Of a DNA stretch of 30,019 bases, positions 16,195 through 27,272 are shown in pieces. Location: NCBI GenBank assembly GCA_031281925.1, contig JAITES010000058.1, forward strand, positions 1-30,019, written 5' to 3'. The number at the start of each line of letters is the position of its first letter. Position 1 is the first letter of the stretch. The translations under genes and the position numbers were made by a program. The notes under the pieces are model-generated. The model had not been told where the DNA came from. It saw only the letters and a program-made list of their open reading frames with translations, and did no database searches. Origin of the DNA: Treponema sp. (GTDB lineage: Bacteria > Spirochaetota > Spirochaetia > Treponematales > Breznakiellaceae).

Positions 16195-18261
16195 CTACAA
16201 TAGATTCACCGGGTCTACGTCTACTTCCAGATAAACCCGGGAGTCCTTCTGTTTACTGTACACTTCCATAACCCTCCGGGCCAGCGCGTGCAGCGCCCCC
16301 ATGGCAGGCCCTCTCAAGAGAAACTGTTTGCGGTAATAGCCTCCCCGGAGGCTGATGGGGCACTCCGCAGGGCCCAGAACTTCGGCTCCCCTGGGCAGGG
16401 ACTGCATGGCCGTATGTGCGGCAAGACCGATGGCCTTTTCGGCGCGCTCTTCGTCCCTGGAACGGGCGGTAAACCTGATAAGCCGGGAATAAGGGGGGAA
16501 GCCCAGAAGCTTCCGCTGGGCAAGTTCGGCCTTAAAAAAGCCGTCCACATCCAGGGCGCAGGCCCGCAGTATTGCAGGATCCTTTGGCCGGAAAGTTTGA
16601 ACAATCACCTTGCCGTCGGGGAAATAACGGCCTGCCCTGCCGGAAACCTGTACCAGAAGTGAAAAAGTCCTCTCGGCGGCCCGGAAATCGGGGAGCTGGA
16701 GTCCTGTATCCGCAAGAATCACCCCCACAAGCCGTACTCCGGGAAAGTTAAGGCCCTTGGCAACCATCTGGGTGCCCAGCAGAATATCGAATGCCCCTGA
16801 GCGGAAGAGATCCAGGGTTTCTTCAAGGCTGCCCTTGCGGCTTGTGGTATCCGAATCGGCCCGGCGGATGCGGAGATCGGGAAAAGTCCGGCTCACCTCT
16901 TCCTCGATAAGTTCCGTACCGAAACCGGTAAAACCGGCCTCAAGAGAACCGCAGTTTGGGCAGGCCTGCGGGGGAACCTCCGAGTAGCCGCAGTAGTGGC
17001 ATATAGCCCTGCCCAGTTTCTTGTGCCAGGTAAGGCTTACCGAACAGTGTTTGCAGGAGAGTTCAAAGCCGCAGTGCCTGCAATGGTAGAAGTAGGCGAA
17101 GCCCCTCCTGTTGAGGAAGAGTATGCTCTGCCGGCCCATCCGGGCGGTTTTCCGTATCTCGTTTTTCAGTTCATCGCTCAGGCAGCCCTCGCTGTGTTCC
17201 AGGCTGACAGGGTATATTTCCGGAGGGCTGCCGCCCGAAAGCCTCCGGGTAAGATCCAGCCGCAGTATGGACGGGGATGCGCTCCTGCCTCCCTCAGGAC
17301 GCCGGGCATGGGGAACTTGAGCTGCAGGCGGCGGGGCTGCTTGATTGTACGGCTCCGCCTGCGGCCCTTTGCACATTATTTCCCAGGCTTCCGCAGAGGG
17401 GGTGGCGGAGCCCATCACGAGACGGGCGCCTTCGATCCTGGAACGGTGCATGGCTACCTGCCGTGCGTGATAGCGGGGGGTGTTTTCCGACTTGTAGGAG
17501 CCGTCGTGTTCTTCATCAATGATGATAAGAGAGAGATCCCTGATAGGCGCAAACACGGCGCTTCGCGGGCCCACCACAATCCGTACCTCACCCCGGCGTA
17601 TGCGCATCCATTCGGTAAAACGGGCCGCCGGGCTCATGCGGGAGTGGAAGGTGGCGGCAACGGAACCGAAACGCTGTCCTATGGCCTCCGCAGTCTGGTG
17701 CGTCAGGGAAATTTCCGGTACAAGGTATATTACGCCTTTGCCCTGCCTCATAAAGTATTCCGCGGAGCGGAGAAAGACCTCGGTTTTTCCCGAACCGGTG
17801 ATCCCGAAGAGGTAGAAGCTGGAGGCCGCCGGGTTTTCCTCCGTGATGGCTTCCATGGCTTTCCGCTGCTCTGCGGACATTTCCAAAGGAGCGGGGGGGA
17901 TCTCTTCTTCCCCGGCAAAGGCCGAATACGAGGCTTCCCGGCGGCCCGAGGGGATCATGGCGGAGAGCGCCTGGCCAAAGCCGCAGAGGTAGTAGCCGGC
18001 CACCCATTGAGCCAGGGCCATGTCCCGTTCATCAAAGATCGCTTCCTTGTCCACTACCCGGCGGATATCCTTGATCTCTTTTATGCCTTCGGGAGGGCTT
18101 TCCCGGCTTGCCGTGATGTAACCGGTACTTTCCCGCCGGCCCAGGGGTACGACAGCCCTCTTGCCTACAGCGGCTTCTCCTTTGGGATCTATATGGTAAC
18201 TGAAACGCAGATCGCCGGGGATATCAAAGACAATATCGAAGTAGGCCGGAGGAGCTTTCAA
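16195..18261 (-). CDS. priA: Primosomal protein N' (replication-restart helicase)
   Basis: N-terminal 3'-binding domain, GITGSGKT, IIIDEEH, LFLNRRG, Cys-rich CRHC..CKHC..CHYC..CPNC, GTQMVAKG and QVSGRAGR. TTG start overlaps the udg stop (TTGA). Confidence 0.97.
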   Translation of the reverse strand: MKAPPAYFDIVFDIPGDLRFSYHIDPKGEAAVGKRAVVPLGRRESTGYITASRESPPEGIKEIKDIRRVVDKEAIFDERDMALAQWVAGYYLCGFGQALSAMIPSGRREASYSAFAGEEEIPPAPLEMSAEQRKAMEAITEENPAASSFYLFGITGSGKTEVFLRSAEYFMRQGKGVIYLVPEISLTHQTAEAIGQRFGSVAATFHSRMSPAARFTEWMRIRRGEVRIVVGPRSAVFAPIRDLSLIIIDEEHDGSYKSENTPRYHARQVAMHRSRIEGARLVMGSATPSAEAWEIMCKGPQAEPYNQAAPPPAAQVPHARRPEGGRSASPSILRLDLTRRLSGGSPPEIYPVSLEHSEGCLSDELKNEIRKTARMGRQSILFLNRRGFAYFYHCRHCGFELSCKHCSVSLTWHKKLGRAICHYCGYSEVPPQACPNCGSLEAGFTGFGTELIEEEVSRTFPDLRIRRADSDTTSRKGSLEETLDLFRSGAFDILLGTQMVAKGLNFPGVRLVGVILADTGLQLPDFRAAERTFSLLVQVSGRAGRYFPDGKVIVQTFRPKDPAILRACALDVDGFFKAELAQRKLLGFPPYSRLIRFTARSRDEERAEKAIGLAAHTAMQSLPRGAEVLGPAECPISLRGGYYRKQFLLRGPAMGALHALARRVMEVYSKQKDSRVYLEVDVDPVNLL

Positions 18262-19130
18262 GAGAGAAATTCCTCTGCTCCGGCAGCAAAAACCGGATCT
18301 TTGGCGGCATATTTTGCCATAAGGGCCCTGGATTCCTGCCGGTATCCTTCATCCAGAGCGGCGAGACGGAGCATAAGTTTTTTAAGATCCTCAAAGACCG
18401 GTATTTTCAGACTGTCGTCCCGGAGCAGGGCGCTGGGATGGTAGGTTGCCAGGATCCGGATACCGGAATCCCCCGCCGAAGACAGAGGATAAGAATCCCC
18501 CCGGGAACCGGGAAAAGCGAAGTCGAAGAAACGCCCCCTCAGGCGGCCGATTGGTTCCGGAGGGGATTCTTCATCCCCGTTTTGCCCCGGCCCCGCATGG
18601 AGGAGACGGTTTGCGGCCACCTTGCCCACGGCAAGGATGAGGCGCGGCTTTAGGACTTCAATCTGACGGATAAGAAAGGGGGCGCAGGCGCGGATCTCCT
18701 GAAATTCCGGATCACGGTTGCCCGGAGGCCGGCACTTCACCGTATTGGCAATAAAGCAGTTTTTTTCCCTGAAGAGGCATATTGAGGCTAACATCCTGTC
18801 GAGCAGTTGGCCTGCGGGCCCCACAAACGGCCTCCCTGTGGCATCTTCCTCGGCCCCGGGGCCTTCTCCCAGCACCAGAACCAGGGGATGTTCGGAGCCT
18901 TCTCCGGGAACAGCCCTGTTTCTCGTTTTTCCCAGCCGGCAGCCGCTGCAGGACACTATCTCCGCCGCAATATCTGCCGCCGAACAGCCTGTTTTTTTGC
19001 CTGCGGCAGAAGAAGGCGCAGGATCATCACTAAAATGATAGTCGTACAGGGCGTTACGGTAACCGGATTTTAGTGCAGCGATACCCAGATCCAGAAACCG
19101 GGCTACCTTTATTTTTTGTTCCGCATTCAC
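18258..19130 (-). CDS. udg: Family-4 uracil-DNA glycosylase with [4Fe-4S] cluster
   Basis: CSGCRL, GEGPGAEED..GRPFVG.AG.LL, NTVKCRPPGNRDP and TYHPSALLR. Start placed at GTG 19130 (VNAEQK) rather than 19241. This is inferred: the extension covers the divergent promoter region. Confidence 0.9.
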   Translation of the reverse strand: MNAEQKIKVARFLDLGIAALKSGYRNALYDYHFSDDPAPSSAAGKKTGCSAADIAAEIVSCSGCRLGKTRNRAVPGEGSEHPLVLVLGEGPGAEEDATGRPFVGPAGQLLDRMLASICLFREKNCFIANTVKCRPPGNRDPEFQEIRACAPFLIRQIEVLKPRLILAVGKVAANRLLHAGPGQNGDEESPPEPIGRLRGRFFDFAFPGSRGDSYPLSSAGDSGIRILATYHPSALLRDDSLKIPVFEDLKKLMLRLAALDEGYRQESRALMAKYAAKDPVFAAGAEEFLS

Positions 19131-19136
19131 ATGCTC

Positions 19137-19165
19137 ATTCAACCGAAGAGTTTCCGCAATGGCAA
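19137..19165 (-). promoter_or_regulatory. Weak candidate promoter for udg-priA
   Basis: On the minus strand: TTGCCA, 17 nt, TTGAAT, 6 nt, then GTG 19130. The -10 lacks the usually conserved A at its second position. Confidence 0.3.
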
Positions 19166-19244
19166 GCCCTTTGCCAAGGACACCCTTCTCAAGGGGCGCC
19201 ATCGGCACAGGTCGCCGAACAGGGCATCGTGATGAGGCCATCTA

Positions 19245-19272
19245 TTGACAAAGCCCCCCTCCATGATAAATT
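19245..19272 (+). promoter_or_regulatory. Candidate sigma70 promoter for the PAP2 / Rnf-like operon
   Basis: Perfect TTGACA (19245-19250), 16-nt spacer, TGn-TAAATT (19267-19272). ATG 19282 follows 9 nt later with no Shine-Dalgarno. Confidence 0.6.
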
Positions 19273-19281
19273 CTGTATCTA

Positions 19282-19770
19282 ATGTCTTTCCCTATGACCA
19301 TACGAGCGGCTTCGATTAAATCTTTTTTTGAGAACCCCGTCTTTCTGTCCGCCGTTACAAGCTGGTTTAGCGCCCAGCTGATGAAAGCGGTGGTCATTCT
19401 GTTGCGTTCACGGCACCGGAAGCCCAGGGAAATACTGGCGATAATCATCTGGCGTACCGGCGGCATGCCTTCCAGCCACGCTGCGCTTGTCGTTTCCATG
19501 GCTACGGCGGTGGCTTTTGCCGAGGGAATAAATTCCAATCTCTTTGTAGTTTCCGTGTTTTTTGCCCTGGTTGTCATGAGGGACGCCATGGGTGTACGCC
19601 GTTCTTCCGGTCTGCAGGGCAGGGTATTGAATTCCCTGGGGCGGCAGACCGCGGAGAAACTGGGTATTGAATTCCATTCCATCAAAGAAGTTCTGGGCCA
19701 TGCTCCCCTGGAAGTTGTTGTCGGCGGCCTTTTCGGGTTTTTTATCGCAGCAGCCTTTGCCTTGCTCTAG
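19282..19770 (+). CDS. Divergent PAP2-family membrane protein (DUF212 / YuiD-like)
   Basis: TGGMPSSHAA, VMRDAMGVRR..G.Q and LGHAPLEV..G motifs. Confidence 0.9.
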   Translation: MSFPMTIRAASIKSFFENPVFLSAVTSWFSAQLMKAVVILLRSRHRKPREILAIIIWRTGGMPSSHAALVVSMATAVAFAEGINSNLFVVSVFFALVVMRDAMGVRRSSGLQGRVLNSLGRQTAEKLGIEFHSIKEVLGHAPLEVVVGGLFGFFIAAAFALL

Positions 19771-19782
19771 GATTCATCCGGC

Positions 19783-21249
19783 ATGCCCCTTCGTCTGTTA
19801 ACATTAAAAATCGGCTCGAATGTGAAACGAAGTTTTATGCAGGGCCTCCTGTTGACAGGCGTCTCCCTCCTTTCGGGGCTTCTCTCCCTGTTTCTGATTT
19901 TGAAGCTCTATACAGCGCCGGTTTCGGCTTCCTGGGCCGTCGTCACGGTGGATCAGGCGCTGCCGGACAGGGAAACCGCAGAGGCTCTCTCTTCCCTCGG
20001 CCCGGGCATCATAAGCGAATCCACCCAGTGGGTTTTCCTGGATAATTTTGGGAGTCTTGAACGTGTCAACCTTGAGGAACTGCCCGGACGCCTTGAAAGT
20101 TTTGATCCCCGGAGGGATCCCTATGCGGAAAAGCTCCATGATTTTTTTGTTCGGGACGGAATGCGCTACTTCTTCATCCCCCTGGAAAGGAGTCTTTCGC
20201 CCTGGGCCATGAGAGGTTTTGAAAAGAAGATTGCCCTGTGCCTGGCGGGAATTCCCTTCCGTGTGTCCTATACCGGCGCTTCCCGGCCCCTTCTTCTCTA
20301 TGCCCTTGTCTTTGCAGCTGCCGCCCTGGCAGGCCTTTTTTTTTCAGGCTCTCCGCTCTGTTTTTTGTTCCTCCTGCCCCTGCTTCCCTCCCTTGCCCTG
20401 GAAGGCCCTGCCGGGCTCTCCGCCTGCGCCTTCCTTTCAGGTTCTGCGGCCTTCCTGCTTGAACCACTGCGGGAGATTTTTGTATCCCGCCGTTATCAAA
20501 ATCATTTTTCCGTCCTGGAGATAATCAAGGATAACCGCTTTCACTGGCTCTTTTCCCTGCTTTTCCTCATACCGGCCCTGGCAATCATCCTTGTGTATCT
20601 TTCGCCGCTTGTTATTCCGGCAGTACCCCTGTTTTATTTTTTGTGGATTCAGGCTCTGCGTCTTGAATCCTGCCGCGGCATGAACGTGTCCCATGTCCGT
20701 TTTATTCCGGTAAGCATTCTTCCCTTTCCCGGGAGGGGAAGTTTTGCCCGCAGTTCCCTTCGGAACATGTTCCACCGGCGTCTCGCCTTTCCCCGTGCCG
20801 GCCTTCCCTTTGCCCTGGCGGCGATCTTTGCCTTTCTGTTCCTCCTTTCGGGCGTCAGGCTGGGAGAACCGGCTTCCCTTCTCGCCGAGGGGGGCTTGAG
20901 CGAAGAGGATTATAAGGCTCATGTCCTCTTTCAGTCTTCTTTTTCATATAGATCTCTCTGGGAAACAGAAGAATTTTTCCCGATGAATCACTATACTTTA
21001 GGAGAAGACGGGCTCATTGCCGGCATGATTAACGAAAATATCGCTGTTCCGGCGATTCCCCCCTTCCCTCTAAAAAACCTGTTGGAAGGTTTGTCCGGCC
21101 CGGTGAGCAAAGAGGATCTCCGTTCCCTTCCTGTCGTTTGCCTTGCCCTGCTGTGTTCCCTGCCGGGTTTTATTTTTTCTCCGGGATTCCGGAGGGGTGG
21201 AAGAAAGAGAAAGATGGTATCATACGATGAAAAATGGATAGCCGCATGA
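19783..21249 (+). CDS. Unknown polytopic membrane protein
   Basis: Intact 488-aa ORF with an N-terminal anchor, a soluble domain, a central bundle of hydrophobic segments, a second soluble domain, a final TM and a basic tail. Its stop overlaps the rnfC start (ATGA). The start could also be GTG 19822 or ATG 19837. Confidence 0.75.
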   Translation: MPLRLLTLKIGSNVKRSFMQGLLLTGVSLLSGLLSLFLILKLYTAPVSASWAVVTVDQALPDRETAEALSSLGPGIISESTQWVFLDNFGSLERVNLEELPGRLESFDPRRDPYAEKLHDFFVRDGMRYFFIPLERSLSPWAMRGFEKKIALCLAGIPFRVSYTGASRPLLLYALVFAAAALAGLFFSGSPLCFLFLLPLLPSLALEGPAGLSACAFLSGSAAFLLEPLREIFVSRRYQNHFSVLEIIKDNRFHWLFSLLFLIPALAIILVYLSPLVIPAVPLFYFLWIQALRLESCRGMNVSHVRFIPVSILPFPGRGSFARSSLRNMFHRRLAFPRAGLPFALAAIFAFLFLLSGVRLGEPASLLAEGGLSEEDYKAHVLFQSSFSYRSLWETEEFFPMNHYTLGEDGLIAGMINENIAVPAIPPFPLKNLLEGLSGPVSKEDLRSLPVVCLALLCSLPGFIFSPGFRRGGRKRKMVSYDEKWIAA

Positions 21250-22547
21250 AAGTTTACTCCTTCCCGCGGGGCGGTATCACGATAAACGATCCGGCGGTCC
21301 CGCAGAATAGTTCCAGTGTGGTAGCTTTTTTACCCGCCATCTCGGTTATCCCCATGGTGCAGCATCCGGGCGGCCGGGCCTATCCCATCGTTTCCGTGGG
21401 GGATCTGGTCCGGGAAGGCATGCTTATCGGCAGGGGGCAGGGGCCCCTTTCCGCCAATGTCCATGCCTCCGTACCGGGCCGGGTGATCAGAATGGTATCC
21501 TGGAAAGCAGCCGGCGGTCAGAACAACGATGCGCTGATAATCCGTATGGAAGGGAGTTTTGAGAAGCTGGGCAAGAGAGAGGAATTCTTCCCCTGGCTCG
21601 GCATGTCAGCCTTCGATCTCCACCGGACTATTGCGGAATTCGGCATTGTAGAAATGGAAGGCTCAGGCCGCCCCGTTGCGGATATGCTCAATTCATTGAG
21701 GAATCAACAGGGGACTATCAGCCTGGTAGTCCGCTGTGTTTTTGATGATCCCTGGCTGGCGGCCGACCGTCTGCTCTGCAGGGAACGTACCCAGGCTATT
21801 GCCGAAGGGGCTCATATCATGTGCCGGGCGGGGAGGATGGGCAGGATTGTCTTTGCCCTGTCCCAGGGAGAAACCGAATTGGGCAGCCGGCTCATGGAGG
21901 AAGCTTCCCGCTGGGATATTCCTGTCTCCCTGGTGTATACAGGCTCCCGTTACCCCCAGCGGAATCAGAGGGAACTGGAACTGGTGCTCCGCTCTTTCGG
22001 TAAAAAAGAAAATGTTGAACTGGGCGCCCTTCTCATGCTGGGGCCCGCCACTCTGGCCGCAATCCATGACGCTGTGGCATACAGAAAGCCCATCCTTGAC
22101 CGCTATGTAGCCGTGGGAGGCTCCGCGGTACGCAAGCCCCAGGTGATGAAGGTACGGATCGGTACCAGAATAGGCGAAATTTTTGCCGAATGCGGCGGTT
22201 TTGTAGACAAGCCCAGGAAGATAGCAAGCGGTTCTCCCGTATTGGGAAGGGCGGTGGTTGATCTGGATGAACCGGTAATAAAAACCAGTTACGCGGTTTT
22301 TGCCCTTCTGGAAGCCCAGGCCCAGCCCCGGCGGAACTGCATAAGCTGCGGCGAGTGCCGGACGGTGTGTCCTGTCGGCCTCGATCCCGAAGAACTCTAT
22401 AAAAACGCCAGGGCGGCAGGACGAAACGGAACTGCCTCCAGGAAACCCGGAATTTCCGGCAATGACAGCTGTCATGGCTGCGGCTGCTGCGATGTGGTAT
22501 GCCCTTCCCGTTTGGCCCTGTCTCAGACTATTCTGGGGATGGCGTAA
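21246..22547 (+). CDS. rnfC: RnfC-like subunit with degenerate NADH/FMN-binding motifs and two intact [4Fe-4S] motifs
   Basis: SFPRGGI N-terminus, GGRAYP.V..GD.V.EG..IG, SANVHASV.G.V, RYPQ, SLBB-like VRIGT.I.E...ECGG, CISCGECRTVCP and CHGCGCCDVVCPS. Start ATG 21246 overlaps the upstream stop. Confidence 0.85.
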   Translation: MKVYSFPRGGITINDPAVPQNSSSVVAFLPAISVIPMVQHPGGRAYPIVSVGDLVREGMLIGRGQGPLSANVHASVPGRVIRMVSWKAAGGQNNDALIIRMEGSFEKLGKREEFFPWLGMSAFDLHRTIAEFGIVEMEGSGRPVADMLNSLRNQQGTISLVVRCVFDDPWLAADRLLCRERTQAIAEGAHIMCRAGRMGRIVFALSQGETELGSRLMEEASRWDIPVSLVYTGSRYPQRNQRELELVLRSFGKKENVELGALLMLGPATLAAIHDAVAYRKPILDRYVAVGGSAVRKPQVMKVRIGTRIGEIFAECGGFVDKPRKIASGSPVLGRAVVDLDEPVIKTSYAVFALLEAQAQPRRNCISCGECRTVCPVGLDPEELYKNARAAGRNGTASRKPGISGNDSCHGCGCCDVVCPSRLALSQTILGMA

Positions 22548-22549
22548 AT

Positions 22550-23641
22550 ATGGCTGCGGAAACATGGAAACAGGAAAAACGAATAAACCTCTCTCCCCAG
22601 GTGAATTTTGCCCGCTCTACCACCAGCAGGATGGTTCTGGTGGCTTGCTGCGCCCTTATGGCAATCATTCAGTCTGCCATTTCGGATGGAGGCGCTTCAC
22701 TGTTCGTGGCCTTCTCTGCCCTTGCCGGAGCGGTGCTTACGGAACTTCTTGTCACCTGGCGCCGGGACGGATACAGGACGCTTCTTGACGGGAGTGCCGT
22801 GGTTTCGGCCCTGGTATTGACATTGCTTCTGCCCAACCGGATCAATCTCTTCTGCGCCTTCTTTGCGGCTGTCTTTGCCATGGCGGTGATAAAGCACAGT
22901 TTCGGCGGTCTCGGTTCCAACTGGGTAAATCCTGCCCTCGGCGGCTGGCTGTTCATGCGAATCTCCTTTCCCCAGGCCTTTGAAAAGGCGCTGGAAGGTT
23001 CAAGCCTCTCGATCCTTTTCCGGAGCCTGGCTTCCGGTTTCAGCAATCCCCAGGGCTCTCCTCTGGCAATCCTCAAAATTTCGGGAACATGGCAGTACAG
23101 TGCAGGCAGTTCTCTTGATCAGACTTTCAGGAATTTTCTCAATTCTACGATTTTTGCGATACCCGGAGCGGAACTGCCCGCCGGTTATATAGACCTTTTC
23201 AATTCCAGATCTCCGGGGATCATTGCGGATCGGGGAATTCTCGGCCTGCTTGTGGGCAGCATCCTGATATGCGCCTCTCAGGTGAACCGGGCCTGGATAT
23301 CGGCTCTTTTCCTCCTGGTGTACGGTTTTCTTGTCCGTACTTTCGGCGCTCTGCCCTTTGGCGGGGCGGCAGGGCAGGGGGATGTGCTTTTCTCCTTCCT
23401 CAGCGGAGGCACCCTTGTGGCGGCCTTTCTGCTGATCACCGATCCTGCCACCGGGGCAAAGTCCAATACGGGAATCATTGTTCTTACGGTATTGGGGGCC
23501 ATCTTTACCTTTATCTTCCGGGAGCAGGGGAGAGAGATGTACGGCGCCTTCTTTGCCACGGCCCTGATCAATGCTCTTCTGCCCCTGTTCCGCTACACCG
23601 AACGCTGTTTTCTTTTTAACCTGGGGAAGAGGAGAGGGTGA
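22550..23641 (+). CDS. rnfD: RnfD-like membrane subunit
   Basis: SPQV....STTSRM, DGSAVVSAL.L.LLLP, KH.FGGLG.N..NPAL.G, LITDPAT and GAFFA.AL.N...PL. No [S/T]GA[S/T] FMNylation motif. Confidence 0.85.
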   Translation: MAAETWKQEKRINLSPQVNFARSTTSRMVLVACCALMAIIQSAISDGGASLFVAFSALAGAVLTELLVTWRRDGYRTLLDGSAVVSALVLTLLLPNRINLFCAFFAAVFAMAVIKHSFGGLGSNWVNPALGGWLFMRISFPQAFEKALEGSSLSILFRSLASGFSNPQGSPLAILKISGTWQYSAGSSLDQTFRNFLNSTIFAIPGAELPAGYIDLFNSRSPGIIADRGILGLLVGSILICASQVNRAWISALFLLVYGFLVRTFGALPFGGAAGQGDVLFSFLSGGTLVAAFLLITDPATGAKSNTGIIVLTVLGAIFTFIFREQGREMYGAFFATALINALLPLFRYTERCFLFNLGKRRG

Positions 23642-24108
23642 TGTCGGCAAGGGCAAAAAAAAGTTTTAATCCGTTTCAGGATACCCTGATCCTGACCGGC
23701 TGGCTGGCCGGCCTCCTTTTGCTTGCAAGCCTTATATGGCTTTTGTCCGGCTCTTTAAGGGAAGGAATTTTGTTGAAACGAATAAACCGCCTGCTCAAGA
23801 CCCAGGGTTATTCCTGGGTACTCTCATCCCCGATTCCTTCGCGGCCTGCCGCCGGGGGGATACAGGTTCTGGGAAGCTGGTACAGGATCTCAAGTCCCGA
23901 TCAGGATGCTTCCGCATGTGTGTTTCCCCTTTTCACCGACGGAATCGGCGTACTCTGCCTTGCCCGGCTCAACCGGGATGCAAAAGTGGAGGAACTTGTG
24001 GCCCTTACCGTTCATGGTGAAAAAGTATTTTCCCGTATCCCGGAGGCGCAGAAAGATATCTACAGGAGACGTATCGAAAGAGCCAATCCGGAAAAGGCAT
24101 CGCCGTGA
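23638..24108 (+). CDS. RnfG-position protein: single TM plus short soluble domain, lacking the FMN-Thr motif
   Basis: Lies between rnfD and rnfE with GTGA overlaps on both sides. DGIGVLCLARLNRD..V..LVAL..HGE resembles the RnfG GY.G.I...VG...G.I.GV....H.ET segment. It ends before any SGAT-like site. Confidence 0.65.
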   Translation: MMSARAKKSFNPFQDTLILTGWLAGLLLLASLIWLLSGSLREGILLKRINRLLKTQGYSWVLSSPIPSRPAAGGIQVLGSWYRISSPDQDASACVFPLFTDGIGVLCLARLNRDAKVEELVALTVHGEKVFSRIPEAQKDIYRRRIERANPEKASP

Positions 24109-24731
24109 ACAATACCTATCATTCTCATCCATTCTGGGGGAACAGAAGTCCCCTCTCTTCTTTGGCCGGTTTAGCCCTTATCCTCATCTGTTCAAGCCGT
24201 TTGGCCTATGCCCTTACCGTAAGCGTCGGTCTCCTCTGGCTCTACCTTCTTACCGGCCTTTCCCTGTGGTTTGCCCGGCGCATCCTGCCTGAAAGGGGCA
24301 GATCCCTGGTTATTCTGGCTGTTTCCTGCTTCATTGGGGCTCTGTACCTCTGGGTTCACCTGCTGATCAATCCCTTTCTGGGAATGGAATGTTTCTTCCC
24401 CATCCTTCTGGGGCCTCTGATATACACAGGTTCCGGTACGGCGGAAAGAATACAGACCATGGATCTCAGTGAGGGACTGGCCGCAAGTTTCTTCGATGCT
24501 CTGGTTTACTGCGGCCTCTCCATTGCCTTGGCCCTTATCCGGGAACCTCTGGGCTTCCTTTCCCTTTCCTTTCCCGGCGGCAGCAGGGGAATGATCTTCT
24601 TTTTTGCAGGCAAAACTTCTCTTCTCTATCCGGTTTCCCTCAGTTCCGGAGCCTTTCTCCTCCTTGGTTATGGGATCGTCATCTACAATTTTTTAAGAGG
24701 CCGGGACAATTCCGGGGAGGAAGATGAATGA
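24105..24731 (+). CDS. rnfE: RnfE-like membrane subunit with altered Cys motifs
   Basis: Six hydrophobic segments. LIREPLG...L and SGAFLLLGY correspond to RnfE IRE.LG.G.L and PGAF..LG. Operon position fits. Confidence 0.72.
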   Translation: MNNTYHSHPFWGNRSPLSSLAGLALILICSSRLAYALTVSVGLLWLYLLTGLSLWFARRILPERGRSLVILAVSCFIGALYLWVHLLINPFLGMECFFPILLGPLIYTGSGTAERIQTMDLSEGLAASFFDALVYCGLSIALALIREPLGFLSLSFPGGSRGMIFFFAGKTSLLYPVSLSSGAFLLLGYGIVIYNFLRGRDNSGEEDE

Positions 24732-25342
24732 TAAAATTCCTTATTCTAATCATTTTTTCAAGCTGTTCGGCAAACCTGGTTTTCCAGTACGGTCTGGGGC
24801 TAAAGGGAGTAAGCCGCCGGCCGGGAGGGGAGGGAAAGAGCTTCCCCTGGTATAGCGTGCTTTTTCTCTTTATCAGCGTAATCTTCCTCTGGCTCTTCTA
24901 TACCCTGATCCTTTCCCTGTTTTCTCTGGGTATCTTTGCCTATATTCTCCTCTTCCCGCTGAGCGCCGTCATGCCCCGCGCCGTGGAGAAGGTTCTTGGC
25001 CGGCTTTTTCATCTTCCTCCGCAGGAAGAACGGGCTTACAGTCCCCTGGACGCGTATGAAGGGCTCTGCCCCGCGGCAAGCCTTCTTACCCTTCACCTGG
25101 CATCTTCTTTTGCAGAGGCTCTCTCTCTTGCTCTGGGTTTTTCCCTTGGCATCCTGTTCTCTCTGGTACTAATCCGGGAAGTCGCCCGCCGTTCATCCAT
25201 GGAACAGGTAAACCGTTTCTTCAGGGGAAATGCCCTTACCCTGGTATCGCTGGGCCTTGCCTCCCTCATTTTAAGCGCCGCCTCCGCTATTTTGATCGGC
25301 GCGCTGAGCGGTTCCATGCTCCCCGCCTTTTTTTCGCCATGA
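24728..25342 (+). CDS. rnfA: RnfA-like membrane subunit with altered Cys motifs
   Basis: ANLVFQYGLGL corresponds to NN.V....LGLC. GFSLG....LVLIRE...R and FRGNALTLVSLGLASL correspond to GF.LA......IRER and F.G..IALI.AGLMS. ATGA overlap with rnfE. Confidence 0.72.
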   Translation: MIKFLILIIFSSCSANLVFQYGLGLKGVSRRPGGEGKSFPWYSVLFLFISVIFLWLFYTLILSLFSLGIFAYILLFPLSAVMPRAVEKVLGRLFHLPPQEERAYSPLDAYEGLCPAASLLTLHLASSFAEALSLALGFSLGILFSLVLIREVARRSSMEQVNRFFRGNALTLVSLGLASLILSAASAILIGALSGSMLPAFFSP

Positions 25343-25387: not shown

Positions 25388-25416
25388 TTTTCAGAATGCA
25401 GGTTATAAGGTAAAAT
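25388..25416 (+). promoter_or_regulatory. Candidate promoter for the GH57-metG-fem operon
   Basis: TTTTCA (25388-25393), 17-nt spacer, TAAAAT (25411-25416). ATG 25425 follows 8 nt later with no Shine-Dalgarno. Confidence 0.5.
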
Positions 25417-25424
25417 TATAGTAA

Positions 25425-27272
25425 ATGGATGGCAGGATAAAATTGATACTGGGTTCTCACAGGCATGTGGCATGGGGAGCCCCGGAAGAAGATTTCCAGG
25501 ATCTCTACGAAAAAGAACTCAAACCGATGTTGACTGCCCTCTGCAAATTTCCCCGGATCAACATGACGCTCCACTATTCCGGGGTTCTGCTCCAGTGGGT
25601 CACGAGAAACCGTCCTGAATTTTCCATGCTGATCAAGGATCTGCTCCGCCACAAGCAGGTAGAGCTTCTTGGCGGCGGCTTCTATGAACCTCTGCTGCCT
25701 CTGCTGCCCCTTACCGACAAAATCGGCCAGATTGAGATGCTTACGGCAAGTCTCCGCAGGCAGTTTGGGAAAAGACCCCTCGGCTGCTGGATTCCTGCCT
25801 TTGCCTGGGAGCAGAATCTGGCCGGCCCCTTAAATAATTCGGGGATGCTCTATACCTTCCTTGATGAGTCCCAGTTTACCGCAGCAAGGGGTGAGGCGGG
25901 CCCGGGGAAGACCGGTTATGTTCCCTGTTTTACAGAGGATCAGGGGAAGCTTATTACCGTTTTTCCCGTAGCAAGCCGTTTTCATGCTTCCTTTGGTACC
26001 GGCCTTATCTCTCCGGCCCTGGAGAAGATGCAGGATACCCTGAGCGGCGGCGGAAATGATACGGTAGTGAGCCTCTTTCCCGCCATGGTACCGGGAGACG
26101 GCGAATCCCCTGAGCTTTTCTATCACCGGATCTTTGAAGAATTCTCCCGGGCCGGGGATAATATCGAATACACCAGCCCGGCGAAGCAGCTGAAAACCGC
26201 CGCCTGCTATGAAAAACTCTACTTTCCCAGTTCCATCGCTTCGGAAAAGGGTGGAAATGCCTATCTCCCCCGGCAGGCTCTTCTCGATTATCCTGAAACC
26301 AACTCCATCTATACCAGGATGATGTTTACCCATGTATTGATCAGCCAGCTTCGCGGAGACAAGTCCCGCAAGCGTACCGCACGGGAAGAATTCTGGAAGG
26401 CCCAGGGCTGCGATGTATTCTACAACGGGAAAGACGGAGGCGGAATTTCCCGCAAAACTGTACGGCAGGCGGCCTACAGGGCCCTCCTTGAAGCGGAAAA
26501 GATCACCCGCGAAAAGGGCACTTTTGTCCCTTCTCTTTCCATATTCGATTTGGACATGGACGGCCGCGGGGAGTGCCTCTTCCAGGGGGAGAAGATCAAC
26601 TGCTATATCCACAGCAGGGGAGCCGCTATCTTTGAACTTGATTACCTCCCCAGGCCCTGGAACTATCTGGATACCTTTGACGCTCAGGAAAAGGGGAAAA
26701 AGGCTCTCTTCAAGGGCGCCGCCTTCAGGGATTTTATTGTCCCGGATTCGGCTTCACTTGAAAGTCTTGAGACAGGCCGGGTTCCCGGCGGAAGGGCCTT
26801 TGGAGACGAACTCTTTGAAATTGCCGAAATTGACCGTTCCCATGACCGAATCCGTTTTGTCAGGGGCAGGGAGGAAGGGCTCCCCTTTGGCGGACTCAAA
26901 ATTGAAAAGACCTTTCAGTTTAAAAAAGATACCATGCGGCTTCTCTATTCCATCAGGAACGAAGGGGAAAAAAAAGCCGAATTTCACTTTGTCCCGCGGC
27001 TGGATCTTTCCCTGGAAGGGGAGGGGAGCGCGTCGGGCCTTGCCCAGAACAGCAGCACTGATACTGTAGAGTTCAGGGAACAAAAAAACGAATCAAACCT
27101 TCTTATACGGGCCGGCAAGGTTTTCAATCTGAACTTTAAGGCCGTCTATTCTCCGGGAAAGGCCGGGGAATACCAGTACCATGCACTCTTTCCCCGTTTT
27201 CCTGTTTCTCTGGAAGCGGGGGCGGTTTGGGAACTTGAATTTACCCTTAAAATATCCAATAGTGGGAAATAA
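25425..27272 (+). CDS. GH57-family protein (4-alpha-glucanotransferase-like architecture), probably catalytically inactive
   Basis: LHYSG.LL.W, VELLGGGFYEPLL.LLP..D..GQI and FG..P.G.WIP..AW are the GH57 N-terminal core. C-terminal beta domain begins with DLDMDG. The nucleophile position holds Ala (WIPAFAW). Confidence 0.85.
   Translation: MDGRIKLILGSHRHVAWGAPEEDFQDLYEKELKPMLTALCKFPRINMTLHYSGVLLQWVTRNRPEFSMLIKDLLRHKQVELLGGGFYEPLLPLLPLTDKIGQIEMLTASLRRQFGKRPLGCWIPAFAWEQNLAGPLNNSGMLYTFLDESQFTAARGEAGPGKTGYVPCFTEDQGKLITVFPVASRFHASFGTGLISPALEKMQDTLSGGGNDTVVSLFPAMVPGDGESPELFYHRIFEEFSRAGDNIEYTSPAKQLKTAACYEKLYFPSSIASEKGGNAYLPRQALLDYPETNSIYTRMMFTHVLISQLRGDKSRKRTAREEFWKAQGCDVFYNGKDGGGISRKTVRQAAYRALLEAEKITREKGTFVPSLSIFDLDMDGRGECLFQGEKINCYIHSRGAAIFELDYLPRPWNYLDTFDAQEKGKKALFKGAAFRDFIVPDSASLESLETGRVPGGRAFGDELFEIAEIDRSHDRIRFVRGREEGLPFGGLKIEKTFQFKKDTMRLLYSIRNEGEKKAEFHFVPRLDLSLEGEGSASGLAQNSSTDTVEFREQKNESNLLIRAGKVFNLNFKAVYSPGKAGEYQYHALFPRFPVSLEAGAVWELEFTLKISNSGK

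Follow-up and report, generated by a model that had tools for sequence, protein, structure and literature searches.

The window analysed here is a 30,019-nucleotide (nt) stretch of contig JAITES010000058.1 (C63), part of a 2.45-Mb, 79%-complete metagenome-assembled genome of a termite-gut Treponema, and its positions 19282–25342 hold a cluster of seven genes related to the rnf operon. All seven are plus-strand open reading frames free of internal stops. In order, they encode a DUF212/PAP2-like protein (19282–19770), a 488-amino-acid (aa) membrane protein (19783–21249), and RnfC-like (21246, or 21234, to 22547), RnfD-like (22550–23641), RnfG-like (23638–24108), RnfE-like (24105–24731) and RnfA-like (24728–25342) proteins. 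Neighboring genes overlap at four junctions (ATGA at 21246, GTGA at 23638, GTGA at 24105 and ATGA at 24728), which points to translational coupling, and the two remaining junctions are gaps of 12 nt (19771–19782) and 2 nt (22548–22549). This layout, with its junction positions, gaps and freedom from frameshifts, is as first described in a first-pass annotation made from the sequence alone.

The same annotation placed the cluster behind a single TTGACA promoter. A sigma-70-like match (TTGACA-16-TAAATT with an extended -10 TG, 10 of 12 positions) is present on the plus strand at 19245–19272, well placed 10 nt upstream of the DUF212 gene. Promoter-like sites are no more frequent in the region than in shuffled sequence (4 found, 4.5 expected), and the match is therefore best treated as a consensus match that draws its weight from its placement. 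No rnfB was found in or beside the cluster in Pfam and NCBIfam scans, again as annotated, and the sole rnfB above cut-off in this genome lies on contig C269. All of the Rnf-like subunits score below their NCBIfam cut-offs (C, 233.6 of 245.95; D, 124.3 of 207; E, 21.1 of 213; A, 31.1 of 229), and the RnfG-like protein has no match.

Cofactor sites of the Rnf-like subunits

Canonical Rnf (C. tetanomorphum 7ZC6, A. woodii 9ERI, A. vinelandii 8AHX and the operon on C269 of the same genome) has in common with the cluster the C-D-G-E-A gene order, the recognizable folds of C, D, A and E, the two [4Fe-4S] motifs of RnfC and the Asn/Asp ion-site residues of RnfD, and RnfG is the top structural match of the protein in the G slot. 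In the C. tetanomorphum structure RnfA Cys25 and Cys113 and RnfE Cys26 and Cys109 ligate [2Fe-2S], RnfD Thr153 and RnfG Thr164 are the flavinylated residues, and RnfD Asn124 and Asp248 flank riboflavin and a Na+ site (PMC9588780). The cluster differs in lacking RnfB and equivalents of all four cysteines and both threonines, and in the replacement of the RnfC loops for flavin mononucleotide (FMN) and NADH. The first-pass annotation had claimed altered cofactor motifs in the A/E, G, D and C subunits alongside retained RnfC [4Fe-4S] motifs, and both halves of that claim hold against solved Rnf and NQR structures and against the canonical paralogs of the same genome.

The RnfC-like protein (433 aa, or 437 aa from the alternative ATG at 21234; TIGR01945, 233.6 bits) aligns over its full length with 7zc6_C (E = 4.5e-53) and matches the canonical RnfC of its own genome (hhalign, 99.8%). 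The family consensus opens with MKVYSFPRGG, which favors the start at 21246. Its FMN/NADH glycine loop reads GIVEMEGSGRP where the 7ZC6_C alignment has GIVGMGGATFP, and the second motif of the site reads VRCVFDDPWLAAD in place of canonical NAAECEPYLTCD, so that neither GxGGAGFP nor NxxECEPYLTxD can be recognized. The replacements GIVEMEGSGRP and VRCVFDDPWLxAD are themselves invariant across 71 RnfC-like orthologs, in which 144 columns are at least 90% conserved. Both CxxCxxCxxxCP motifs of the 2x[4Fe-4S] ferredoxin domain, CISCGECRTVCP and CHGCGCCDVVCP, are intact, and their eight cysteines are each conserved in 98–100% of the same orthologs.

Three further cysteines in the NuoF-like part of this protein, Cys168, Cys182 and Cys320 (437-aa numbering; 21735–21737, 21777–21779 and 22191–22193), are invariant in the window's family. 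A new metal site formed by these residues in place of FMN was considered and dropped, as Cys168 and Cys182 are family-restricted; Cys320 (ECGGF) alone is kept in five aligned loci of other lineages, T. pallidum included.

The RnfD-like protein (363 aa) is readily assigned (PF03116, E = 1.5e-51; TIGR01946, ∼124 bits; hhalign to the canonical RnfD of its genome, 99.5%). Its flavinylation loop reads SNPQGSPLAILK against DGISGVTPLGILK in the canonical paralog, with Ser for Thr and without the D/SGA context, and what is left is a vestigial GSPLAILK loop (context SNPQGSPL) rather than the SGAT-P-L of a flavinylated Thr. Approximately half of 65 orthologs carry this GSPLxILK loop and it is deleted in the others. 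The residues of the cation and riboflavin site are kept throughout these orthologs: N127 and D/E298 in 65 of 65, and position 227 as D in 63 and E in 2. Together they correspond to the Asn124, Asp248 and Glu185 set of C. tetanomorphum.

The 156-aa protein in the RnfG position is assigned by that position and by a weak structural match. Neither it nor its family profile has a sequence match in the PDB, the protein has none in Pfam or NCBIfam, and direct comparison of protein and profile with the canonical RnfG of the same genome found nothing; a weak hit of the family profile to canonical RnfG (E = 0.006) was obtained. Its AF2 model (pLDDT 87) comprises an N-terminal transmembrane (TM) helix, a five-stranded sheet and short C-terminal helices, and its closest structural counterparts in the PDB are all RnfG chains, albeit weak matches (Foldseek ranks 1–4, E = 0.07–0.15; VIA ranks 1–5, Z = 4.5–5.6, ∼140 residues aligned). 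Because sequence searches of the PDB gave nothing, homology of the G-slot and E-like proteins is argued through hhalign, predicted structure and gene position. The flavinylation motif D-x-x-[ST]-G-A-[ST] (PMC12052999) is absent from this protein and from 68 orthologs. In addition, the protein stops before the FMN-bearing C-terminal helix of the 204-aa canonical RnfG, and only 13 columns of the family are at least 90% conserved. A Ser/Thr at position 37 (99% conserved) was considered as a flavin acceptor and rejected, since it lies where the TM helix ends and has no SGA context.

The RnfE-like protein (208 aa; PF02508, E = 3e-6) matches the canonical RnfE of its own genome (hhalign, 91%, E = 1e-6), and its family profile has no match in the PDB. 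Of 67 orthologs, 52 have Ala and 13 Ser at the first ligand position, and the only Cys there is the window's own C29; at the second position 38 have Cys, 17 Phe and 6 Tyr, the window being one of those with Tyr. Cys29 (24189–24191) is therefore unique among these orthologs; its closest relatives have Ala or Ser, and it may be a reversion or chance. The family profile of the RnfA-like protein (204 aa; TIGR01943, E = 3e-7) aligns along its whole length with NqrE and RnfA at E = 1e-10 to 1e-5 (NqrE 7xk3_E, 1.2e-10; RnfA 9eri_A, 2.1e-8; RnfA 7zc6_A, 3.5e-7). Here the first canonical cysteine aligns to K, R or G (K in the window) and the second to an invariant G112. The four [2Fe-2S] ligand positions of the window accordingly read K and G in the A-like protein and C29 and Y in the E-like protein. 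When cysteine columns are counted independently of any alignment to canonical subunits, the maximum is 57% in the E-like and 49% in the A-like family.

A canonical operon in the same genome

A complete canonical rnfCDGEAB operon, a possibility that the first pass had raised together with rnfB and apbE, lies on contig C269 (3813–9027) as coupled genes for RnfC (482 aa), D (358), G (204), E (223), A (191) and B (282). Its motifs are canonical (GMGGAGFP, ECEPYL, LCP and NC cysteines, SGVTPL), RnfA (235.5 bits) and RnfB exceed their cut-offs, and its G+C content equals that of C63. Flavinylation of the canonical RnfD and RnfG should call for an ApbE/Ftp flavin transferase (PF02424), yet a search of this 79%-complete genome revealed none; as 37 of 40 family genomes have one, among them all 19 of high quality, a gap in the assembly is the most likely reason.

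Coexistence of the two operons extends well beyond this genome. In a sample of 151 Treponematales genomes, 33 of the 36 from the window's family have strong matches to the E-like profile, 33 have canonical rnfA and at least 30 have both, and three closed chromosomes carry both operons. Canonical operons were retrieved from twelve genomes, in ten of which (five families) the DUF212-linked block was retrieved as well; in the other two, closed genomes of the window's family, the second operon was seen as a strong E-like match only. In a maximum-likelihood RnfD tree, a single branch (SH-aLRT 100) divides the 13 canonical sequences from the 28 DUF212-linked ones; family structure is repeated on both sides, and the window's family and T. 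pallidum have long branches.

The block itself is remarkably constant in composition. Among 80 loci from termite-gut Treponema, Breznakiella and Spirochaetaceae, the order DUF212-488-aa-C-D-G-E-A-GH57 recurs wherever the contig is long enough, apart from a few loci without a detected RnfC-like gene, and 66 loci hold all five Rnf-like genes. A wider set of 23 loci from six Treponematales families contains the block DUF212-p488-rnfCDGEA(B)-GH57 in every case. On the evidence of gene order and phylogeny, the DUF212-linked operon is a paralog of canonical rnfCDGEAB that has been conserved across Treponematales.

Stepwise loss of the electron relay

Not all members of this paralogous operon are as degenerate as the one in the window. 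In most members from three families (f63, f3 and f62), rnfB lies between rnfA and the GH57-like gene, and the least degenerate of them retain RnfB, the four [2Fe-2S] cysteines, RnfD SGAT(P)L and RnfG D-x-x-SGAT. Their RnfG also compares with canonical RnfG (hhalign, 91.5%), and at the one such locus that was scanned (L114) RnfC and RnfD exceed the NCBIfam cut-offs. Six loci (L114, L116, L117, L122, L123 and L131) share with the window the flanking DUF212, 488-aa homolog and GH57-like genes, the RnfD clade and a non-canonical RnfC glycine loop, e.g. GVVEMDEPGRP, and differ from it in being cofactor-complete, with RnfB. Members of this type have kept RnfB, four cysteines and SGAT motifs, and are therefore probably still redox-active. 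Other loci of the same families (L118, L119, L121 and L125) lack part or all of the cysteine set. The window's family and Treponema sensu stricto have kept no RnfB and hardly any of the ligands.

The canonical RnfC glycine loop occurs in none of the DUF212-linked paralogs in which the loop could be located. Its alteration in cofactor-complete loci suggests that the change at the RnfC acceptor site preceded loss of the relay. Given the cofactor-complete intermediates, the distribution of predicted ligands indicates that the electron relay is a thing lost stepwise and more than once. The first-pass annotation had seen correlated loss along the whole chain with intact frames; the whole chain is indeed affected, but through stepwise and recurrent change and in no single event. 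It had also treated the membrane-protein partners as additions to an Rnf scaffold, which does not stand, as the less degenerate members have these partners plus RnfB and the ligands. Judged by this shared gene content, DUF212, the 488-aa protein and the GH57-like protein are ancestral parts of the second operon.

Selection on the cluster

Ratios of nonsynonymous to synonymous substitution rates (dN/dS) were obtained against four orthologs at 86–97% protein identity. They are lowest for the RnfC-like (0.08–0.15) and DUF212 (0.06–0.24) genes, followed by RnfE-like (0.17–0.28), RnfA-like (0.15–0.30), RnfD-like (0.17–0.37), the 488-aa protein (0.25–0.36) and the RnfG-like gene (0.27–0.51). The overall range of 0.06–0.51 and the invariant replacement motifs place all seven genes under purifying selection and exclude simple decay; a ratio near 1, which the first pass had named as the mark of such decay, is not approached.

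The Treponema pallidum counterpart

The first pass had mentioned a non-canonical Rnf-like cluster in T. pallidum, and this proved correct. Exact-sequence look-ups of the block from a genome of the sister family returned, letter for letter, TP_0148, TP_0149, RnfD (TP0151) and the 'divergent PAP2 family protein' O83188. These look-ups and the identical gene order make the window cluster orthologous to T. pallidum tp0153–tp0147, which runs DUF212 (TP0153), RnfC (TP0152), RnfD (TP0151), G slot (TP0150), RnfE-like (TP0149), RnfA-like (TP0148) and GH57 (TP0147). Both clusters are without flavinylation motifs and RnfB, and T. pallidum RnfC likewise retains both [4Fe-4S] motifs. The two differ in the 488-aa RND-like gene, which lies between DUF212 and rnfC in the window and is lost in T. 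pallidum, and in their genomic setting: canonical rnfA was not found in T. pallidum, whereas the window's host has canonical rnfCDGEAB.

The T. pallidum operon has been described as a noncanonical Rnf, co-transcribed as tp0147–tp0153 and without a flavinylation motif (Deka et al. 2015, mBio; PMC4436053). That paper tentatively placed TP0153, which is of PAP2 type, at the RnfB position, and later work builds a flavin-based chemiosmotic model on the operon (PMC7512555). In these models the products of tp0148–tp0153 form a flavin-based redox pump that energizes ATP synthase and flagella (PMC4436053, PMC7512555). The first-pass suggestion that the cofactor loss might be new can therefore be upheld in part only: the missing flavinylation motifs were already published in 2015, and the [2Fe-2S] ligands and the RnfC site are left unaddressed there (PMC4436053).

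Partner genes and neighbors

The first gene of the cluster (19282–19770, plus strand) encodes a 162-aa DUF212, or divergent PAP2-family, membrane phosphatase (PF02681, E = 1.1e-41; 142 bits against a cut-off of 26.5). Across 77 orthologs 46 columns are at least 90% conserved, including GGMPSSH with His66 and GH140xPxE, and the PAP2 motif histidines H66 and H140 are present in 100%. No characterized DUF212 member was found in the literature searched.

The polytopic 488-aa membrane protein (19783–21249, plus strand) has no Pfam or NCBIfam match. It has 121 homologs, and all of the organism-named ones come from Treponema, Spirochaetaceae or Spirochaetia. Its AF2 model (pLDDT 74) opens with a TM helix and a periplasmic alpha/beta domain, continues with a TM bundle and a second small domain, and closes with one more TM helix. 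The top PDB matches of the model are MmpL3, MexY, AcrD and HpnN (Foldseek, E ∼0.01, probability ≥0.9); VIA ranks MmpL5 first (Z = 8.4), followed by Patched, CusA and AcrB, and the matching AFDB clusters are named RND exporter, SSD and MMPL (E = 2.6e-4 for a named RND exporter). In its predicted topology of TM1, periplasmic alpha/beta domain and TM bundle it resembles RND/MMPL/SSD proteins such as MmpL3/5, HpnN, AcrB and SecDF, with scores that are weak to middling, and it differs from them in being approximately half the size, without a sequence-family match and without conserved proton-relay residues that could be identified. In a sister family (f2) a divergent homolog (hhalign, 97.5%) occupies the same place between DUF212 and rnfC. 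A phylum-wide profile search matched the window's family and one other and missed these divergent homologs, and for this reason it says little about the true distribution of the protein.

The C-terminus of the 488-aa protein (21190–21246) has a basic stretch followed by Y-x-[DE]-K-[RW]-I-A-A (KRIAA), is kept in nearly all homologs and ends at the start of the rnfC-like gene. In sequence it looks like a candidate docking tail. Co-folding of the RnfC-like and 488-aa proteins gave a score of 0.01, which counts neither for nor against binding.

Downstream of the cluster by 82 nt lies a gene for a 615-aa GH57-like protein (25425–27272, plus strand; PF03065, E = 7e-28), with a weak promoter-like match upstream of it (25388–25416). 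Its Ala125 aligns with Glu123 of 1K1W, which we take to be the catalytic nucleophile of the T. litoralis 4-alpha-glucanotransferase, and HRHVA stands where HNHQP is expected. Of 65 orthologs, 51 have A or G where the nucleophile would be, and by its motifs the protein looks like a non-catalytic GH57 relative. This gene follows the cluster in 62 of 66 termite-gut loci that bear an RnfA-like gene and in 21 of 23 order-wide loci, the other two of which end or are cut earlier. On the opposite side, a family-4 uracil-DNA glycosylase with a ∼90-aa N-terminal extension is encoded on the minus strand (18258–19241), divergent from the DUF212 gene. The two starts are 40 nt apart, and the short intergenic region with its promoter-like site is common to both.

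Discussion

The comparisons above show, in the predicted proteins, that the operon of the window's family and of Treponema sensu stricto has lost rnfB, the four [2Fe-2S] cysteines, the portion of RnfG that carries FMN, the RnfD flavinylation Thr and the FMN/NADH glycine loop of RnfC. Selection appears to have retained the scaffold, RnfD Asn127, Asp227 and Asp/Glu298, and the [4Fe-4S] pair of RnfC. Because no transmembrane carrier is left, we infer that the complex can work neither as a ferredoxin:NAD+ oxidoreductase nor as a redox-driven ion pump. The joint conclusion, that this is a second, selected, cofactor-stripped Rnf operon whose product is not a ferredoxin:NAD+ oxidoreductase, is one we regard as probable. 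There is a precedent within the Rnf/NQR superfamily in NqrA of Na+-NQR, an RnfC homolog that is an obligatory subunit after the loss of its redox cofactors (PMC12174285). However, NqrA alone is cofactor-free in NQR and the relay there is intact, whereas here the relay is gone and the RnfC Fe-S clusters are kept.

Progressive ligand loss, the very divergent A-, E- and G-like sequences and the long branches in the RnfD tree are what might be expected of a decaying, functionless relic of a duplicated rnf operon. Such a relic would not be free of frameshifts and stops in at least 66 syntenic orthologs, nor would it keep its overlapping start and stop junctions, dN/dS of 0.06–0.51 and invariant replacement motifs, and the cluster has been kept in the 1.14-Mb genome of T. 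pallidum, which discarded canonical Rnf. Decay is thus largely refuted as an explanation and scarcely credible. The published proposal for the orthologous tp0147–tp0153, a working noncanonical pump (PMC4436053, PMC7512555), would require noncovalent or cryptic flavins, with flavodoxin or ferredoxin donating directly. The conserved [4Fe-4S] motifs of RnfC and riboflavin-flanking residues of RnfD are compatible with this, as is the Ser at the flavinylation position in approximately half of the RnfD-like orthologs, since ApbE accepts Ser and is present in 37 of 40 related genomes. Yet that Ser loop is without the DxxSGA context and is deleted in the other half, the [2Fe-2S] cysteines are missing as a conserved set, the RnfG-like protein has neither the FMN-bearing C-terminal helix nor its motif, RnfC has changed from GGAGFP to EGSGRP and from NxxECEPYL to RCVFDDPWL, and RnfB is absent. 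Moreover, nothing demands a pump of this copy, as the same genomes keep canonical Rnf. A noncanonical pump is accordingly judged quite improbable.

A narrower role would be that of a redox sensor or gated channel, in which a path from the RnfC Fe-S clusters to an RnfD riboflavin gates cation flow with no net transmembrane electron transfer. Retention of the eight Fe-S cysteines in at least 98% of 71 RnfC-like orthologs, and of both motifs in T. pallidum, fits such a path, as do the riboflavin/Na+-site residues kept in 65 RnfD-like orthologs and the 11.7 Å that separate riboflavin from the RnfC cluster in canonical Rnf (PMC9588780). With the FMN/NADH site gone and RnfB missing there is no evident donor site, however, and riboflavin binding here is putative. 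A channel alone would also leave the constant linkage to DUF212, RND-like and GH57-like genes unexplained, and it is considered unlikely.

The reading we favor takes this linkage into account. The RnfD/A/E core would conduct cations and use or gate ion flow, the RnfC-like Fe-S module may serve as a cytoplasmic redox input or sensor, and the core would work with the PAP2-type phosphatase and the RND/MMPL-like 488-aa protein on a lipid-linked substrate of the membrane or envelope. A cation-conducting core with redox input through RnfC and partners acting on such a substrate is a tentative proposal, the likeliest of the mechanisms considered but held with considerable doubt. The suggestion of the first pass that the scaffold was selected for another job, such as a redox-gated conduit, a sensor or a lipid machine, receives modest support from the conserved RnfD cation site and the RND-like fold. 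Bolder still would be a pump turned machine that has given up transmembrane electron transfer, in which cation flow used or gated through RnfD drives or controls the handling of lipid-linked material in the envelope, jointly with the PAP2-type phosphatase and the RND-like partner, and T. pallidum is left without an Rnf-type redox pump; in this full form the idea is speculative and on balance doubtful.

Several points weigh against the favored reading. The predicted architecture of the 488-aa protein resembles half of an RND/MMPL transporter, with a match strength that is middling (Z ≤8.4), and the protein is not indispensable, as T. pallidum is without the gene. Physical association of the 488-aa and DUF212 proteins with the Rnf-like core would be a conjecture from gene linkage. 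Low-identity alignments of membrane proteins can misplace single residues, though the ligand-loss claim survives this doubt because the A- and E-like families are without any conserved cysteine column. Riboflavin or noncovalent FMN could still be bound, to judge from the retained equivalents of Asp248 and Asn124. Finally, the sequencing runs that match the stretch are termite-gut DNA metagenomes and none is RNA, and all readings for the cluster and its relatives are predictions from genomes.

What was already known is the T. pallidum cluster itself and the absence of flavinylation motifs from it. The searched literature contained no description of its paralogy with canonical Rnf or of the coexistence of both in other treponemes, none of the loss of [2Fe-2S] ligands in the cluster or of cofactor-complete intermediates with RnfB, and none of the ancestral linkage to DUF212, RND-like and GH57-like genes. 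By the comparisons made here the T. pallidum operon is a separate paralog, which almost all other Treponematales have beside canonical Rnf and which has repeatedly shed its transmembrane electron carriers, with T. pallidum holding the stripped copy only. For the Rnf/NQR field this provides a natural series from cofactor-complete to cofactor-free complexes and a rare case of a whole multi-subunit 'pseudo-oxidoreductase' under purifying selection. If the conversion from pump to machine is true, T. pallidum would be without an Rnf-type redox pump, and flavin-based chemiosmotic energy conservation in this organism would need another basis. The long-standing question of how the syphilis spirochete generates its ion gradient becomes testable in cultivable relatives with the pair of operons, among them T. 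denticola-like oral treponemes, T. primitia and Breznakiella.

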